A stretch of 64,000 bases of DNA from a virus. Below, one piece after another: positions 3,737 through 18,374 of this stretch. Under the pieces are notes generated by a model. The model saw only the letters and a program-made list of their open reading frames with translations, was not told where the DNA came from and did not search any database. The position numbers and the translations under genes are program-made. The stretch lies in the IMG/VR virus record IMGVR_UViG_3300031963_000013; one strand, given 5' to 3'. The stretch's first letter is position 1. Every line of letters begins with the position of its first letter.

Positions 3737-3964
3737 ATGACAAAATATAAAAGCTTCTATCCGCCTGTATGCCTTCAGGGCCCGATCAGTAAACAGTGGT
3801 GCTTCGGTTACGGTAAAGAAGACGATTACATAGAAGTGACTGAATGGGTCAACGGTGCGGGTTTCGACGTGGACATTGAGACGAGTCAAAGACAGCGGTT
3901 TCAATTGACGTGGGAACAGTACGAAGCTCTGAAAGCGTTGGTAAACAAAATAGAAAATCAATAA
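3737..3964 (+). CDS. hypothetical protein
   Basis: 75-aa ORF, IEVTEW.NG.GFD motif. Confidence 0.65.
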   Translation: MTKYKSFYPPVCLQGPISKQWCFGYGKEDDYIEVTEWVNGAGFDVDIETSQRQRFQLTWEQYEALKALVNKIENQ

Positions 3965-3975
3965 AACAAAATATC

Positions 3976-4410
3976 ATGGCAACAAGATCAATGATTGGAA
4001 AACTGAACGAAGACAAAAAAACTGTAACCGCTATCTACTGTCACTGGGACGGTTACTTAGAGAACAACGGTCAACTGTTAACTGAGAACTATGCAGATGC
4101 AAATAAGATCGATCAGCTGTTAGCGCTTGGAGATCTGAGTGTATTGGGCGAGGAGATCGGTGAGAAACACGATTTCGATACGACCGTTGAAAATAGTTGT
4201 ACCGCTTACGGAAGGGATAGGGGTGAAGAGGGCGTAGAAGCAAAAACGTACTCAATAGAGGAGTATAACTATAGCGATGCAGGAAACAAAAGAGGCGTAA
4301 GCTACGTTTATCTATTCGACGGAAAAGAGTGGCTGTATCAAGACTACAGCGCTAAAGGATGGAAACCGGTATCTATTAACTTGAAACTATTAAAAGAAAC
4401 AGCACGATGA
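3976..4410 (+). CDS. phage hypothetical protein (IYCHWDGY family)
   Basis: MATRSMIG...IYCHWDGY...AYGRDRGE...YVYLF; probable start ATG 3976. Confidence 0.75.
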   Translation: MATRSMIGKLNEDKKTVTAIYCHWDGYLENNGQLLTENYADANKIDQLLALGDLSVLGEEIGEKHDFDTTVENSCTAYGRDRGEEGVEAKTYSIEEYNYSDAGNKRGVSYVYLFDGKEWLYQDYSAKGWKPVSINLKLLKETAR

Positions 4411-7770: not shown

Positions 7771-7871
7771 AGTCAGGTGGCGAAATTGGTAACGCAAGCC
7801 TTCACAGAGCAACTGAACCGCAAGTGAGTGAAGCACGTAGGTTCTTACAGGTTCGAATCCTGTCCTGACTA
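7771..7871 (+). ncRNA. tRNA-scaffold RNA copy 1 (anticodon arm replaced)
   Basis: AGTCAGG/CCTGACT acceptor, Leu-type D arm, ACAGG-TTCGAAT-CCTGT T arm. Confidence 0.8.
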
Positions 7872-8087: not shown

Positions 8088-8185
8088 AGTCAGGTGGCGG
8101 AATGGTAGACGCAGTTGATTACAACCCCGAGGTAAAATCTTGGCGCAAAAAGAGTTGATTACAGGTTCGAATCCTGTCCTGACTA
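8088..8185 (+). ncRNA. tRNA-scaffold RNA copy 2
   Basis: Same acceptor and T arm and near-identical D arm as copy 1, unrelated middle. Confidence 0.8.
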
Positions 8186-8405: not shown

Positions 8406-8512
8406 AGTCAGGTGGCGGAATTGGTGTCAATTAAGTTACTCAAAAGGTTGTAAAGCTTGAATGTGGTACATTCTGTTGCTACTTAATATAGGTTCGAATC
8501 CTGTCCTGACTA
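8406..8512 (+). ncRNA. tRNA-scaffold RNA copy 3
   Basis: Same acceptor, near-identical T arm; middle closed by ATTAAGT/ACTTAAT. Confidence 0.75.
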
Positions 8513-9631: not shown

Positions 9632-9786
9632 TAAATTATGACAAAAATAGAAATTAAATTAAATGTAGTCGCTGGCTCAACAGAGCATCATAAGTTGATA
9701 GCGTTTTTGCACGACAACCTTTATGAATTTTCGTCAAAGCCCAATGGCACAAAACCCCTTGTTATGTGTCAGTTAATATTATTAAA

Positions 9787-9903
9787 ATGGTAACAATTAA
9801 AACAAAACACGGAGAGTTTAAATACAAAGATTGGCAATGGAACTTGGCTTGGTTACTGGTCTTTTTATGTGGAGTAGCTGTTGGAATTATAGGTGGTCTT
9901 TAA
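9787..9903 (+). CDS. 38-aa membrane peptide (cassette cargo)
   Basis: MVTIKTKHGEFKYKDWQWNLAWLLVFLCGVAVGIIGGL fills the first cassette body. Confidence 0.5.
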   Translation: MVTIKTKHGEFKYKDWQWNLAWLLVFLCGVAVGIIGGL

Positions 9904-10010
9904 TGGCACATAACGCTTGGCGGCTTTGCGAAGTGGGTAGAAAAGGCAGCTTTTGCCAAACCCGTGTTATGCGTTCGGGCGGTATTTGAAAACGAATTAA
10001 ATTTTAAAAT

Positions 10011-10544
10011 ATGAATAGTAAAATAATCAGCTTTGCAATAGAAGCCCACAACAAAGTAAACCACCTGTATGATGGCAAACCTTATTCCGTCCATTTGTCA
10101 ATGGTTGCACATTATGCAGTAAAGTATATTGATGCAATACCTCAACAATGCTGGGGAACTGTATTAAATGCTGCATGGTTACATGATACTATTGAAGATT
10201 GCAGACTTACTTACAATGATGTAAAAGAAGTTGCAGGGTATGAAGTTGCTGAAATCGTTTACGCTTTAACAAACGATAAGGGTAAAAACAGAAAAGAACG
10301 TGCTGGCGAAAATTATTACAAAGGTATTCGTGAAACAGCTTGGGCAAAGTATGTAAAGTTATGTGATAGGCTTGCTAATGTAAAATATTCAGTTGATACC
10401 AATTCTCGAATGTTGGAAGTTTACAGAAAAGAAAATGCAAGTTTTTTAACTGGTTTAATGTCGGGCAGTTCTGATGCCTTAATTTATAAATACCCGTTGG
10501 AAGAATTAGACACATTGCTTTATGGCGTGTCAAAGGTAGCATGA
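10011..10544 (+). CDS. HD-domain small alarmone hydrolase (RelA/SpoT hydrolase, Mesh1-like)
   Basis: FA..AH, PY..H, AAWLHDTIED, VKLCDRLAN motifs. Confidence 0.85.
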   Translation: MNSKIISFAIEAHNKVNHLYDGKPYSVHLSMVAHYAVKYIDAIPQQCWGTVLNAAWLHDTIEDCRLTYNDVKEVAGYEVAEIVYALTNDKGKNRKERAGENYYKGIRETAWAKYVKLCDRLANVKYSVDTNSRMLEVYRKENASFLTGLMSGSSDALIYKYPLEELDTLLYGVSKVA

Positions 10545-10607
10545 CCACCAACGTGGTAGCATTGTTTTTGTGCTGATATTTTTTAACTAAAAACTCAATT
10601 ACTTAAT

Positions 10608-10982
10608 ATGGATAATAGCAATTCAAAACTTGAAGGTACTTCCGAAAGCCAGCATAAGAACAATGCAATGTTACCTGCCGTTTCTGATATGGAGTATATT
10701 TTATGTGCAGCAATTTGGTTTGATGATGGTGAGCAATATGAGCATCAGCCTAAAAATATTACTACTGGGCTTGTTTTTTGCGGCTATAGACACGGATGTA
10801 TTTTTCAGCAGATAGGTGGCACGATGGGAGAAAGGAAACAGCTCGGTATTTATGAAAAGGAGCAGGGCTTTTTGACGAATAGAAATCGTTTTGTTGATAG
10901 AGAAGAGGCCGCAAAAATTGCATTACAGGCGAACCAAATTGCAGAACCATTACTTAGGCTATTCAGCGAGGATTTATACTAA
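10608..10982 (+). CDS. phage hypothetical protein (cassette cargo)
   Basis: ILCAAIWF...CGYRH...QGFLT...RFVDREEA...LFSEDLY. Confidence 0.75.
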   Translation: MDNSNSKLEGTSESQHKNNAMLPAVSDMEYILCAAIWFDDGEQYEHQPKNITTGLVFCGYRHGCIFQQIGGTMGERKQLGIYEKEQGFLTNRNRFVDREEAAKIALQANQIAEPLLRLFSEDLY

Positions 10983-11099
10983 TGTTCGCAATGGCAGTGT
11001 AACGTCAGGTATTTGTGAAGGCGGCACGAATACCCTTTAAATTAACCGCAAGTGTCCAGCCGCTTGCACAAATACCCTTGTTATAGGGCGTTTATTATT

Positions 11100-11414
11100 A
11101 TGTCAGGAGGAAGATTTGATTATACACAATATCACATCAACACTATTGCGGATAGTATTGAAAGTGAATTAGAACGTCAGGGCAAAGAAAAGCCTAAAGA
11201 CGAATTGTATTTTGATAAGGAATACTTAGAAAAATACCCAGAAGAAAAGTATTACTATATTCATCCATTAGAGGTGCAAAATGAAATGCGAAAAGCTATC
11301 AAAATACTTCGTCAGGCTTCAGTCTATGCCCAACGAGTTGATTGGTATTTGTCTGGGGATGATGGAGATGAAAACTTCTTAAAGCGTTTGAAGGCTGAAT
11401 TAAATGCCCTATAA
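11100..11414 (+). CDS. phage hypothetical protein (cassette cargo)
   Basis: MSGGRFDY...AQRVDWYLSGDDG; probable start ATG 11100. Confidence 0.75.
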   Translation: MSGGRFDYTQYHINTIADSIESELERQGKEKPKDELYFDKEYLEKYPEEKYYYIHPLEVQNEMRKAIKILRQASVYAQRVDWYLSGDDGDENFLKRLKAELNAL

Positions 11415-11482
11415 CGGATAGGTATTACTGCCGCCTGTGAATTGGCAGTGCAACAGTATTTAACAATTAAACAGTTTACAAT

Positions 11483-11695
11483 ATGCAAAACAGTACAGAA
11501 AAGAACGTCAGCACAGGTGGAAGTAATACCAATGTTATACGCCGTTTGTCACGATGGCTAAAAATTAGAATGTTAAAGACAAAGATGTATAACCTTGATT
11601 GCGATATGATGTTTTTTGCAATCCCGTTTTCGCAGTATGAAAAAGAAATGGAAGCGTACCAAAATGAATTAGAGTGCTTGTCAAATGGCGTATAA
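11483..11695 (+). CDS. hypothetical protein (cassette cargo)
   Basis: Starts inside hairpin 4 and stops at the TAAC boundary. Confidence 0.55.
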   Translation: MQNSTEKNVSTGGSNTNVIRRLSRWLKIRMLKTKMYNLDCDMMFFAIPFSQYEKEMEAYQNELECLSNGV

Positions 11696-11771
11696 CGTTT
11701 TGCAGGTTGCTTTAGTGGCGACCTTAACAGATAAACTTGATTAGAATTACAAACTTTAAATAAACAAAGAT

Positions 11772-11975
11772 ATGTCAAAAGAAAACGAAACTAAGCCATT
11801 GAAGCAACCTGATGTTAGCAGTAGTGCGGATTACGAGGGATTTTACACTCATTTAAAAGAGTATGAAGAAAATGGAATATCCACAAGTTTTAAAGACTTG
11901 GTAAGGTTGGCAAAACAATACAATTGTGAAATACCAAAAGTGGTAGATGGAAAACTTGTGTTTAAAACGATATAG
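11772..11975 (+). CDS. hypothetical protein (cassette cargo)
   Basis: Starts inside hairpin 5. Confidence 0.6.
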   Translation: MSKENETKPLKQPDVSSSADYEGFYTHLKEYEENGISTSFKDLVRLAKQYNCEIPKVVDGKLVFKTI

Positions 11976-11988
11976 CATTACTAATAAT

Positions 11989-12070: not shown

Positions 12071-12092
12071 CAAAACTTTAAATAAACACAAT

Positions 12093-15162: not shown

Positions 15163-15927
15163 ATGAGACTACAAACTTCCCCGTACGAAACAAGGCAAGA
15201 AGAGTACAGAGACGATCCGTGGAAAATGTTAATGGTGTGTTTCATGCTCAACCAGACAAGCCACAAACAGGTCGACCAGGTTCGCCACGAGTTCTTTCAA
15301 AGGTATCCAAACGCAGAAGCGTTGTTAGAAGCAGAAGAATCAGAGATAGCGTCGGTGATAAAAACACTGGGCTTCTATAACCGAAGAGCAAAGGCGTGGA
15401 AGCGGTTCAGCAAACAGTGGATAGAAGCAGTAGAAGAATACGGTACTTCGGTTCCCATATCAGTTTTACAAGACATGAAAGGTGTGGGTAGGTACGCTTT
15501 AGATTCGTGGAAAGTGTTTCAATTGTTTCAGTACGACATCGAAGTTGACGATCACGTTCTAAACTGGTACGTCGATTGGGCAAGACAGGAGGTCGAGAGG
15601 TTAAAGAGGGAAAGTTCTCCGTGGAAACCGATGGTTGTGTATTACCTTCACTACAAGGACGATCGTTACTTCATAAACAATTGGAACAAATTGGGAGACT
15701 ACGTCTGCTGCGTCATGGCAAGGACAATGGGGGAGGCGATAGAAAAGACACGGAAGATCGCGTTGAACCAGAAGGGCGCAATGAACATCAAGATCATGGG
15801 AATAAGCAAAGGCAAAGAAGAGTGGGTGAACGAAGAGAGTCCATCGGTTACTAACGAAGATATCTACACTAAACACATAACAGCGTTGTTCGAAAGAATT
15901 AAAATAAAAGCAGCACAACATGGTTAA
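15163..15927 (+). CDS. HhH-GPD DNA glycosylase, MBD4-like, with C-terminal extension
   Basis: DPWKMLMVCFMLNQT, LGFYNRRAK, GVGRYALDSW, DHVLNWY. Confidence 0.85.
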   Translation: MRLQTSPYETRQEEYRDDPWKMLMVCFMLNQTSHKQVDQVRHEFFQRYPNAEALLEAEESEIASVIKTLGFYNRRAKAWKRFSKQWIEAVEEYGTSVPISVLQDMKGVGRYALDSWKVFQLFQYDIEVDDHVLNWYVDWARQEVERLKRESSPWKPMVVYYLHYKDDRYFINNWNKLGDYVCCVMARTMGEAIEKTRKIALNQKGAMNIKIMGISKGKEEWVNEESPSVTNEDIYTKHITALFERIKIKAAQHG

Positions 15928-16141
15928 AGAAGGATACATAGAAATGATTAAAGATAGGCTTCAGTGGTGCATAGACACAGAAAGGTACGAAATGGCGGCA
16001 AGGCTGAGGGATCAAATACGTTTACACAGCACAAGAGAGGGAGAAGACGAAGAGTGGAAACAACAGTACTACTTAAGCTTAGCTAAAAAATACGCGCCTG
16101 AATTTTGCGAATTATTTAATAAAACAAACAAAAATGGATAA
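15920..16141 (+). CDS. UVR (UvrB/C coiled-coil) motif protein
   Basis: ERYEMAARLRDQI. Confidence 0.65.
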   Translation: MVKEGYIEMIKDRLQWCIDTERYEMAARLRDQIRLHSTREGEDEEWKQQYYLSLAKKYAPEFCELFNKTNKNG

Positions 16142-17189
16142 CAATTTCAATTTCACTTACTTCACAGATTACGAAAAAGACAAGTCTGTAAAGATCGGCA
16201 TCTCTGCCCTTGTGGGTAAGATCAGCAGACAGATCTCCTCTCATAAAGCCGGTTGGCCGACTATGATCGCTAATCAACTAAAGCACGCTGGGTATCCAAA
16301 CGTCACAGTTATTCACGATCAGAAAACGGATTGGTCGGAATACGATGTGATACTTTTAGAACACGGTATGGAGTTCAAGGGAACTTTCAATATCTTTGGA
16401 GGCGCCAACGACGAACTGTACGATCAAGTTAAAAGGATATTTGTGCAAGGCGTTAGAATGTACTCGCTTCACGTTGACATGCCGTTGATCGGTGACTTAA
16501 TTAAAGTTCGCCACAGAACGGGCACAGAACAGTTCAAAAGCCTGTTAGAGAAAGCTGACATGGTAAACAACGTGTGTGCTACTTCTATTCCTCGTGTAGA
16601 CTTCATCGAAAAGACAGACAAGTTGGTGTTTGGCGACTCACACTGCTTCAGTACTTACAGACCCGGTTGGATGGTGTGTAGGAACGACGGTATGACAATG
16701 TACGGTTGCTTGAATAGAGGATTGAAGTCTTACGTGTTTCCTTGGGTAAAAGAGCTCATCGTTTACATGGGTAACATAGACGTTCGTCACCATCTGATGA
16801 GACAGCAAGACCCAATCAAATCTATTGACGAAATGATGGCCGCTCTAGAGCAGCAACTGCTTGAACTCAATCTAGATTCTGTTACGTTGACTGAAGTACT
16901 GCCTATTGAGAACGTTTCTAGAAAGATCCCCAAAACTGGTTGGTACAAAAAGATGCCGTACTTCGGAACTTGGGAAGAGCGCTCAGCGTTGGCAAAGTAC
17001 ATAAGCGTAAAGCTCAACGAGATTGCAGAAAGAAACAAGTGGAACGTTTACAAAGTGCCTGCGATCTTCAAAAACGAGAACGCTGAATTGGACTTCAAAG
17101 TTATGGAGAGGCCACAATCTGTACACATCTCCAGGGAATTCCACTACTGGGACTACGAATTAGATCAACAAAACACAAGAATACAATAA
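16134..17189 (+). CDS. SGNH/GDSL-fold-like protein
   Basis: VFGDSH block I, GNIDVR block III, C-terminal SVH. Confidence 0.55.
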   Translation: MDNNFNFTYFTDYEKDKSVKIGISALVGKISRQISSHKAGWPTMIANQLKHAGYPNVTVIHDQKTDWSEYDVILLEHGMEFKGTFNIFGGANDELYDQVKRIFVQGVRMYSLHVDMPLIGDLIKVRHRTGTEQFKSLLEKADMVNNVCATSIPRVDFIEKTDKLVFGDSHCFSTYRPGWMVCRNDGMTMYGCLNRGLKSYVFPWVKELIVYMGNIDVRHHLMRQQDPIKSIDEMMAALEQQLLELNLDSVTLTEVLPIENVSRKIPKTGWYKKMPYFGTWEERSALAKYISVKLNEIAERNKWNVYKVPAIFKNENAELDFKVMERPQSVHISREFHYWDYELDQQNTRIQ

Positions 17190-17192
17190 CAC

Positions 17193-18374
17193 ATGGACAA
17201 AAAAGCAATGAACAACGTCAAGTACCTAAAGATGACCAAGTACTACGACGAATTTTTGAAGTACTTTAGAATGGCCACTGTACAACAGGCCGAGTGCAAT
17301 TTAGGTAAGATCAGACACTGCGACTCAAGCGTAGAGGACGATCTGATGAAGCACGTTGAGCTGTACGATGTGGTCGAAAGAAAATACGCAGGATTCTCCC
17401 AGATTGTCAACGACTGCTTCTACGGTTTCACAGAGGACCATCCGTATTGGGACAAGATGAAGGACGGTATCATGTCAAAGCAGCGCGAAATCATATCTAA
17501 GAACTGGACTGGTAAACGCAATGTGTTTGGAGTGCGAGAGTGGATGTACCTTTTCTTGTTTCACCGTTTAACAGGCTCCGCTATCAACTATTCGATGAAG
17601 CCTTCAGGGTACCACAATACGCTTCTGTTCGATATGCACAAAGCCGACAACATACCGCAAATGGTACAGATCATTCAGCAAGCGATCAGACCGTTTTATA
17701 CGTCTATAGGTTACCAGTTCCCAAGCTTTCCTAAGCCCAAAGGCAGATACAAGCGTGGAGGAGACTACTTCCTTTGCGAATACGTACCGCAGTTGGCCGA
17801 GGACCTTACGAGGTTTTTAGAGCAGGGAGAAAAGAAAGACTTGCGTGAAGTAGGCGACTTCATGTTTAAGTGGAACAAAGACAGGGACCTCAGAGCTTTC
17901 AAATTCCAGTACGCCGCTGTTATCGCTGATATTGCCGATTGGTTCCCTGAGTTTGTGAACAGAGAGAGCCCGTTCTACTACGGCACAAACGCTATCGAAT
18001 GCATCGAGTATCTTGCTACCAAGTCTATCAAGATGCCAAAAGAGGACTTCTTAGACGCAGTAATGATGAAGATATACGAAGACACAGGTAGCTACCCGTA
18101 CAACGCAGAGGACGTTGCGTGCGATAGCATACGTTGGATCGAGAACTACGTTAAGCCTGGTGCAGACTACGATCACTTGGACTTCGACCACGTTTGGAAC
18201 AGTTCGAGCATTAAAGATCACCCTTACGGAAGACAAAAAGCTATGTTAGACCTTGGGTTGGTACCGAGTTTCAATGGTATCACCGAACATCCGTCAGACG
18301 ACAAAGTTATCAAGTCTTTAAATATGACAGAAGAACAATACAAACAACGAGTAAAAGAATACTACGGACTATGA
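17193..18374 (+). CDS. putative amino acid:DNA transferase (aGPT-PPlase-like, HhH fold)
   Basis: FQYAAVIADIAD, YYGTNA and AEDVACDSIRW resemble family motifs. Confidence 0.5.
   Translation: MDKKAMNNVKYLKMTKYYDEFLKYFRMATVQQAECNLGKIRHCDSSVEDDLMKHVELYDVVERKYAGFSQIVNDCFYGFTEDHPYWDKMKDGIMSKQREIISKNWTGKRNVFGVREWMYLFLFHRLTGSAINYSMKPSGYHNTLLFDMHKADNIPQMVQIIQQAIRPFYTSIGYQFPSFPKPKGRYKRGGDYFLCEYVPQLAEDLTRFLEQGEKKDLREVGDFMFKWNKDRDLRAFKFQYAAVIADIADWFPEFVNRESPFYYGTNAIECIEYLATKSIKMPKEDFLDAVMMKIYEDTGSYPYNAEDVACDSIRWIENYVKPGADYDHLDFDHVWNSSSIKDHPYGRQKAMLDLGLVPSFNGITEHPSDDKVIKSLNMTEEQYKQRVKEYYGL

Follow-up and report, generated by a model that had tools for sequence, protein, structure and literature searches.

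We examined a row of small genes in a 64,000-nucleotide stretch of DNA from an uncultured phage (IMG/VR record IMGVR_UViG_3300031963_000013; "the window" hereafter means this whole 64-kb stretch). The window encodes tRNAs, a thymidylate synthase and primase-like, GP88-family and endolysin-like proteins, and its nearest isolate is a Flavobacterium phage, with 73% nucleotide identity restricted to thyA. Between 9.7 and 12.0 kb, in a region that is present in freshwater metagenomes, small plus-strand open reading frames (ORFs) follow one another with large imperfect hairpins between them. Comparison of these sequences with those of other phages indicates that the region is most probably a five- to six-unit cassette array of an integron-like phage system, built in mirror image, with the recombination site placed before its gene and with an Xer-like enzyme in relatives.

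Five hairpin sites of the form AAC...GTTA, all of a single polarity, lie between 9903 and 11825, and every ORF of the row is on the plus strand (Table 1). Read on the minus strand, the sites become TAACA...CGTT; this opposition between the polarity of the sites and the direction of all cargo ORFs had been pointed out in the initial annotation and is indeed present in the sequence. On the plus strand, the sites of the window consist of (T)AAC-G, a spacer of 4-7 nt, an arm of 17-22 nt, a loop, the second arm, 2-3 nt and GTTA. The arms are unalike in sequence between sites, the sole recurrent parts being (T)AACG at the left end and TGTTA at the right end. With stems of 17-22 bp, loops of 33-75 nt, no T run and mutually unrelated arms, the hairpins do not correspond to terminators or repetitive extragenic palindromic (REP) elements.

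Complementary boxes flank the gene bodies, such as GTTATACGCC...GGCGTATAAC (repeats I2 and I7), a pattern characteristic of cassettes that are cut inside a common box. The end boxes match at 10/10 positions for C3 (GTTATAGGGC / GCCCTATAAC) and for C4 (GTTATACGCC / GGCGTATAAC, I2), and the right box of S0, GTTATGTG, is complementary to CACATAAC at 9907-9914 (repeat I7); the end box of C1 is degenerate (ACCAAC). The TAA triplets at 11412-11414 and 11693-11695, which stop C3 and C4, are those of TAAC boxes, as had been proposed beforehand. The gene of the S3 cassette starts downstream of the GTTA box.

Two unrelated gene bodies, in the related contig L106 (620-1100) and in the window (11080-11415), are enclosed by the identical extended boxes GTTATAGGGCGTTTAT ... 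AAATGCCCTATAAC, and box "alleles" are therefore common to different cassettes. The identical boxes had suggested that L106 carries an orthologue of C3; this was rejected, as the gene bodies fail to align.

Structure of the sites

The window was scanned for the pattern AAC, spacer of at most 9 nt, stem, loop, stem, spacer and GTT. This structure scan returned 6 matches over the 64 kb, 4 of them consecutive within 1.3 kb (S2, S3, S4 and S5). Dinucleotide shuffles of the whole 64 kb reached 0-8 matches, and it is therefore the clustering and the uniform size of the matches that stand out, not their number. Neither TAACG nor TGTTA is overrepresented as a word in the window. When whole sites were folded as single strands, the z values were modest, at -1.0 to -2.5 (near 0 for S1), with no clear energy difference between the plus and minus strands. 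Because long loops dilute the fold-energy signal, we relied on arm pairing and covariation.

A covariance model, R1, was derived from an alignment of 45 medium-class sites from other phages plus S3. In this 46-site alignment, 94.4% of the cells are paired and compensatory changes occur in 19/26 pairs; this level of pairing and compensation was reached by 0/500 shuffles, and sliding the partners brought pairing to 36-54%. The stems align bulge-free, with G.T pairs almost fixed at columns 13/110 and 31/96, and a base-by-base comparison of the arms found these G.T positions in S2-S5. By these measures, the sites have a structure, and its pairing is under selection. Across the window, R1 matched S3, S5, S4 and S1 only, all on the plus strand, and an Rfam scan of the 8-14 kb interval returned tRNAs only.

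Table 1. Sites, cassette ORFs and terminal box of the array (R1, covariance model; E, e-value; I1-I5, repeats)
Feature	Position	Strand	Remarks
S0, possible decayed site or relic	~9688-9768	+	CATAAG...GTTATGTG, read by eye; no R1 match
C0 ORF, 38 aa, hydrophobic tail	9787-9903	+	between complementary boxes GTTATGTG and CACATAAC
S1, short class, weak stem	9909-9971	+	R1 23.9 bits, E 0.004
C1 ORF, 177 aa, HD-domain-like	10011-10544	+	Pfam HD_4 E 4e-6, just under cut-off
S2, long class, 123 nt	10550-10672	+	17-nt arms, 88% complementary (I5); ATG 10608 in loop
C2 ORF, 124 aa from loop ATG	10608-10982	+	other in-frame starts: 10668 (inside AATGTTA), 10692
S3, medium class, 82 nt	11001-11082	+	18-nt arms (I3); R1 46.5 bits, in model by construction
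C3 ORF, 104 aa	11100-11414	+	stop is the TAA of a TAAC box
S4, long class, 124 nt	11413-11536	+	22-nt arms (I1); R1 38.6 bits, E 1e-6; ATG 11483 in loop
C4 ORF, 70 aa	11483-11695	+	stop is the TAA of a TAAC box
S5, long class, 123 nt	11694-11816	+	17-nt arms (I4); R1 44.6 bits, E 4e-8; ATG 11772 in loop
C5 ORF, 67 aa	11772-11975	+	no in-frame ATG downstream of loop ATG
Degenerate terminal box CATTACTAAT	11976-11988	+	abuts tRNA-Leu

A recombinase-linked family in other phages

Through a homologue of ORF 11100 (C3) we reached L015, a phage contig of 256 kb that was extended as L026 (L-numbers label the related loci and contigs that were compared with the window). L026 contains at least 12 sites of the same build as those of the window. 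The last element of its array is TACATAAC, which has no hairpin and lies 45 nt before the gene of a 266-aa tyrosine recombinase at 16868-17665. The homologues of ORF 11100 are full length, with relatives in the recombinase-linked arrays L031 and L044, and the loop of S5 is homologous to that of the L026 site at 15824-15950.

The 266-aa recombinase matches Phage_integrase at 1e-38. Among NCBIfam models the closest is archaeal XerA (195 bits), while the integron-integrase model TIGR02249 gives 161 bits against a cut-off of 265, with a match in two stretches that suggests the absence of the IntI-specific insert. Among solved structures, it is most like XerA, XerD and VchIntIA, with VchIntIA again matched in two stretches. 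Used as a probe, the recombinase identified 80 IMG/VR loci at 55-100% identity, many of them on contigs of 100-360 kb; the carriers look like Bacteroidota phages. In these 80 loci, 275 unique sites precede the recombinase and about 20 follow it. The sites of the family fall into three size classes of about 45, 85 and 125 nt, with a left spacer of 5 nt (GGTTG-like) and a right spacer of 1-2 nt.

In many IMG/VR contigs (L035, L041, L053, L054, L056, L069, L093, L094 and others), the recombinase lies within a few hundred bases of the array-side contig end, which points to breakage of assemblies inside the variable array. In L003, a phage contig of 190 kb, at 3760-4312, a homologue of ORF 11100 stands directly upstream of a homologue of ORF 10608, the reverse of the gene order in the window, and no hairpin sites lie between the two genes. 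Other contigs of the same metagenomes match window positions 11693-11825 only at S5, at ~88% identity and starting exactly at the TAAC box; co-occurring phages therefore carry related sites.

Among cultured phages, the Polaribacter phage siblings Freya_1 to Freya_10 differ in genome length by up to ~4.9 kb. Their integrase, which is 36% identical to the family enzyme (36-41% over the Freya/Ingeline range), starts between record positions 83 and 4180. We compared the loci of Freya_10 (L113, 1-4150) and Freya_1 (L114). The region before the Freya integrase ends in TTGTTGCTAAC|ACCC, and the same junction is found in Cellulophaga phage Ingeline_1 (L115, 6880-7000). R1 gave no significant match on the Freya and Ingeline phages (best E 0.09). 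This region may be a related cassette platform in culturable phages.

Polarity and the mobile unit

Several lines of evidence bear on the polarity of the system. A lone TAAC|TATTATATATA box without hairpin, resembling attI, is found 36-73 nt before the recombinase in about 44/52 distinct loci. In these loci, the end box of the last unit is complementary to the preceding GTTA box and is followed by a TATTATATATA-like sequence, not by a hairpin. The longest ORF is on the recombinase strand in 232/246 units, and the genes thus read toward attI.

The borders of the mobile unit were sought in a census of stretches of 250 nt or more that are nearly identical between different contigs and have unrelated flanks; with a cut-off of at least 120 nt on high-scoring segment pairs, the census was dominated by site-to-site homology, hence the longer limit. 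Of the shared stretches, seven were bounded by consecutive TAAC boxes and none by GTTA at both ends. The L058/L081 pair, for example, shares a TAAC-to-TAAC unit of 315 nt at 100% identity between unrelated flanks. One cassette is internal in L031 but adjoins attI in L044, and the same was seen for L044 and L079. It follows from the TAAC-to-TAAC units that the hairpin moves with the gene downstream of it. These shared units bear out the proposal of the initial annotation that the mobile unit runs from AAC to AAC; they do not resolve the exact phosphodiester bond of the crossover.

The non-Watson-Crick pairs of the stems comprise 373 G.T pairs on the plus strand vs 27 of the minus-strand equivalent (A.C). 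In classical attC sites, the folded bottom strand recombines within its 5'-AAC-3', and this strand is enriched in G:T mispairs, with 1.24 vs 0.39 per site (Nivina et al. 2016, PMC5027507). It had been suggested that the recombining strand of the phage sites be called from extrahelical bases; the stems have none, and it is the G.T pairs that mark the plus strand. Taken together, attI position, ORF direction, unit borders, G.T bias and the restriction of R1 matches to the plus strand indicate that it is the sense strand of the genes that folds and recombines. The inverted polarity relative to classical cassettes, first read from the window, thus gains support from the position of the attI-like junction, the TAAC-bounded shared units and the G.T strand bias, and this conclusion is independent of the spacer-length rule for classical attC sites.

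The strand bias by itself could have another origin: since the sense strand is the folded strand, folding of the mRNA could equally produce it, a point to be counted against a recombination role, and a dual DNA/RNA role of the stems is possible. Taken to its end, this would mean that the hairpins act at the RNA level only, as processing, stability or translation-control stems around starts, and are not recombination sites. The folding of the transcribed sense strand, the fixed G.U pairs and the start codons located in loops would all agree with such a role. It would leave unexplained, however, that the TAAC/GTTA boxes are invariant, that complementarity is chained across gene bodies, that units moved TAAC to TAAC between unrelated contexts and that the sites are confined to the 5' side of the recombinase gene, and we give it hardly any credence.

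The array could also be an ordinary bacterial-type integron fragment carried by a phage, that is, a cluster of attC sites lacking an integron-integrase (CALIN), with canonical attC polarity, attC 3' of the gene and a host IntI. AAC/GTT boxes, chain-complementary cassette ends and variable arms are hallmarks of integrons. CALINs are reported in lytic phages, and IntI1 recombined 5/6 of the phage attC sites tested (PMC9892861). Against this origin, the unit borders, the attI position and the G.T asymmetry put the site 5' of the gene on the sense strand; the linked enzyme is closest to XerA and falls below the integron-integrase cut-off with its two-stretch match; and a canonical model would split the loop-embedded starts from their gene bodies. 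An ordinary CALIN is, in our opinion, very improbable.

The mechanism that we propose for the mirror-image system is as follows. On the sense strand, a unit is composed, in order, of the C of the TAAC box, the folded site, the GTTA box and a gene body ending in ...TAA. The folded site itself opens with a 5-nt spacer; next comes a stem of 17-28 bp in which G.T wobbles are fixed, then the loop, the return arm and a spacer of 2-3 nt. The 266-aa Xer-like tyrosine recombinase of the relatives, presumably acting on single-stranded DNA, would cut AA|C on the folded sense strand and insert units at the attI-like TAAC|TATTATATATA just upstream of its own gene. A cut at this position on that strand would leave each site before its own gene, with genes read toward attI.

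In this mechanism a gene can use the TAA of the TAAC box that follows it as its stop codon. The stop falls on the box TAA in 43/232 units, and within 13 nt of it in 76 more; because the crossover comes after the TAA, the stop codon would stay with its own gene. At the other end, the crossover would lie upstream of the whole site, so that ATG, leader and body move together and the exchange itself makes no N-terminal fusion. The N-terminal fusions envisaged in the initial annotation would therefore not be made by recombination, and would go back to the formation of a cassette.

Start codons inside the sites

The ATGs at 10608, 11483 and 11772 do lie between the arms of their sites, and the translations that had been given for the sequences after them (NNAMLPAV, NTNVIRR and QPDVSSS) are correct; the 3' arm and GTT box read NTNV in S4, and the arm and GTT box read QPDV in S5. 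In the mechanism considered above, the loop of the ~125-nt class (S2, S4 and S5 in the window) would contain an A-rich translation-start region, an ATG and ~12 codons. The 3' arm and the GTT box would then be translated, usually as ...x-V-(S/I), giving a variable leader of 15-25 residues. These positions are our predictions of where translation actually starts.

Across the family, a loop ATG whose frame runs on through the 3' arm and the GTTA box without a stop for 30 aa or more is found in 107/148 long-class sites (72%), vs 11/148 (7%) on the other strand of the long sites and 12/99 medium sites. GTT is in frame as a codon in 73 of the 107. An A-rich stretch precedes the loop ATGs, and a similar A-rich context precedes the ATGs that follow medium sites.

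Scans of IMG/VR for close relatives of ORF 11483 and ORF 11772 found none; a larger protein collection gave relatives of both. Fourteen homologues of ORF 11772 share its body from ADYEGF onward. In 12 of the 14, this body is preceded by leaders of varied length and sequence, all in frame despite indels and ending in ...VS(S/N), and neither ORF 11772 nor these 12 homologues has a start codon downstream of the leader. Two of the homologues were placed behind sites, namely L112, with a long site confirmed by the model (31 bits), and L108, with a weak match (17.8 bits, E 0.08). The relatives of ORF 11483 have variable leaders and are conserved from V(I/M)RR onward, with protein-like substitutions, that is, from upstream of its only internal Met. 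The reading frame through the site is maintained.

Conversely, the inverted cassette borders could be real and the loop ATGs unused, with translation starting at or after the GTT box (for example at ATG 10668, 10692 or 11570) and the leaders being artefacts of ORF extension. ORF 10608 speaks in this direction: 8 homologues outside arrays (L001-L008) lack the leader, match from residues ~21-29 onward and start 3-8 residues before the core EYILCAAIWF, at the equivalent of ATG 10668 or 10692. Two relatives of ORF 11772 likewise have short N-termini, one of them following a tRNA without a site. The leaders are poorly conserved, and their substitutions by codon position (103/64/100) show a weak coding periodicity. 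These observations tell against loop starts in general, but they do not account for the leader-bearing ORF 11772 group, which has no other start and keeps its frame despite indels, for the conservation of the ORF 11483 family upstream of the internal Met, for the difference in open frames between strands (72% vs 7%) or for the A-rich context that loop ATGs have in common with the ATGs after medium sites. That the loop ATGs are unused throughout seems unlikely to us. The comparisons support the loop starts of 11483 and 11772, and the start at 10608 is ambiguous. The earlier proposal that the site doubles as translation-initiation region and N-terminal coding sequence is thus supported for 11483 and 11772 through their homologues, and family-wide through the 107/148 long sites, and is uncertain for 10608.

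The same proposal held each unit to be a self-contained expressible gene. As far as the translation start is concerned, the sequence context agrees with it; for transcription of the units, read-through from upstream phage promoters would be the simplest option. The motif AAACTTTAAATAAACA is found before the ATG of ORF 11772 (11754-11771, in the S5 loop) and before that of ORF 12093, which is not part of a cassette (12071-12092); variants of it (AACTTAAAATAAA) stand in front of many loop ATGs of other phages, and the motif is a possible common signal for translation starts or for promoters.

We also considered, as a tentative and rather doubtful extension, that the ~125-nt sites are portable "expression heads". 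A head would combine a recombination substrate on the sense strand, an mRNA stem holding an A-rich start without Shine-Dalgarno sequence open in its loop whatever the neighbouring cassette, and a generic leader peptide, and would be gained when a gene becomes a cassette. The families of ORFs 10608 and 11772 exist both with and without a head.

State of the array in the window

A number of findings in the window itself count against an integron-like array there. Pfam scans of 30 window ORFs found no tyrosine recombinase, a tblastn search of the 64-kb window with the family recombinase found no homologue, and no attI-like TATTATATATA sequence follows the last unit, the array ending at a tRNA-Leu. 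The array is letter-identical in contigs from 20 sequencing runs of 15 studies dated 2017-2025, and neither joints nor excised forms were seen in the contigs of the sequencing runs. Given this identity and the absence of joints, there is no sign of activity in this phage. Of the individual sites, S1 folds no better than shuffles, and S2 has a degenerate left box (CAAC, not TAAC) and is missed by R1. The array of the window looks like a frozen, orphan array. With four R1 matches within 2 kb and no recombinase in 64 kb, it conforms to the description of a CALIN as at least two attC-type sites with no integrase nearby. For comparison with its terminal box CATTACTAAT, the arrays of relatives end in CATTACCTCTAAC (L108) and CATTGTTGCTAAC (L112).

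Upstream of the array, three tRNA-like genes (7774-7870, 8088-8185 and 8406-8512) have a common 5' end, TAGTCAGGTGGCG, a normal T-arm and oversized middles; 2 of them are matched by the Rfam tRNA model, and ARAGORN misses them.

Comparison with known systems

The likeness to classical integrons is extensive. The sites are folded imperfect palindromes with arms that vary yet remain paired between invariant AAC/GTT boxes, as in attC; cassette start and end boxes are complementary (10/10 for GTTATAGGGC/GCCCTATAAC and GTTATACGCC/GGCGTATAAC), as expected of a crossover in AAC; an insertion site lies beside the recombinase gene; and G.T pairs are in excess on the folded strand. The layout, in contrast, is reversed: instead of an attC located 3' of a top-strand gene expressed from the cassette promoter (Pc) at attI, the sense strand is folded, each gene has its site on the 5' side and reading is toward attI. 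In place of an adjacent IntI-type integrase, the relatives have the 266-aa Xer-like enzyme, and in place of extrahelical bases, the sites have fixed G.T pairs and a 5-nt vs 2-nt spacer. Many of the phage sites, moreover, hold the start codon and leader of a gene.

As compared with the Xer-linked phage arrays, the window has the same site build on the sense strand (R1 matches at S1, S3, S4 and S5) but lacks the end formed by TAAC|TATTATATATA and the ~266-aa recombinase, and is an orphan member. The phage CALINs of Qi et al. 2023 (PMC9892861) are similar clusters of attC-type sites without integrase in virulent phages, including a Polaribacter phage. The sections of that article at hand report canonical-type arrays and one case of "divergent directions", and describe no dedicated Xer-like recombinase, systematic gene inversion or in-site start codons. 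Phage CALINs are already published. We found no published name for an Xer-linked mirror-image array, and full-text word searches of the open-access literature found no description of such a system or of start codons in sites, although searches of this kind are weak evidence of absence.

The family recombinase is most similar to XerA, XerC and XerD (closest relatives PDB 4a8e, 5hxy and 1a0p), which recalls XerC/D-dif and archaeal XerA-dif. The folded site resembles E. coli dif, with its ~11-bp R arm ending in ...YATAA, its ~6-nt centre and its L arm. However, dif is a duplex, single-copy site for chromosome resolution, whereas the phage sites are arrayed hairpins with distant arms that bound mobile genes. 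Another comparison is with the promoter(early) stem-loop (PeSL) elements that Arbiol and colleagues are said to have described in 2010 as "mobile regulatory cassettes" of T4-type phages: small early genes reportedly carry their own expression signals beside a stem-loop and are shuffled as modules. PeSLs are said to be conserved in sequence and thought to recombine by homology, whereas in the present system conservation is limited to the structure and the 4-nt boxes, and the arrays are linked to a site-specific recombinase.

Implications

The textbook logic of integrons has one orientation, with a promoterless gene followed by its attC and expression from Pc, and strand selectivity enforces this orientation. 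The mirror-image arrays, in which a simpler Xer-like enzyme would run the same site chemistry, would show that integron recombination, as a module, can be uncoupled from the expression logic. Because of the mirror-image layout, each cassette must bring its own start signals, often inside the site together with the first codons. With G.T marks in place of extrahelical bases, the sites would also offer a natural test of what attC strand selectivity needs.

The sites are tied to the question of how cassettes originate, and the expression-head reading, if true, would give a first concrete view of cassette birth. For the phages themselves, the system would account for the hypervariable stretch of small unknown genes that many large freshwater phages carry.

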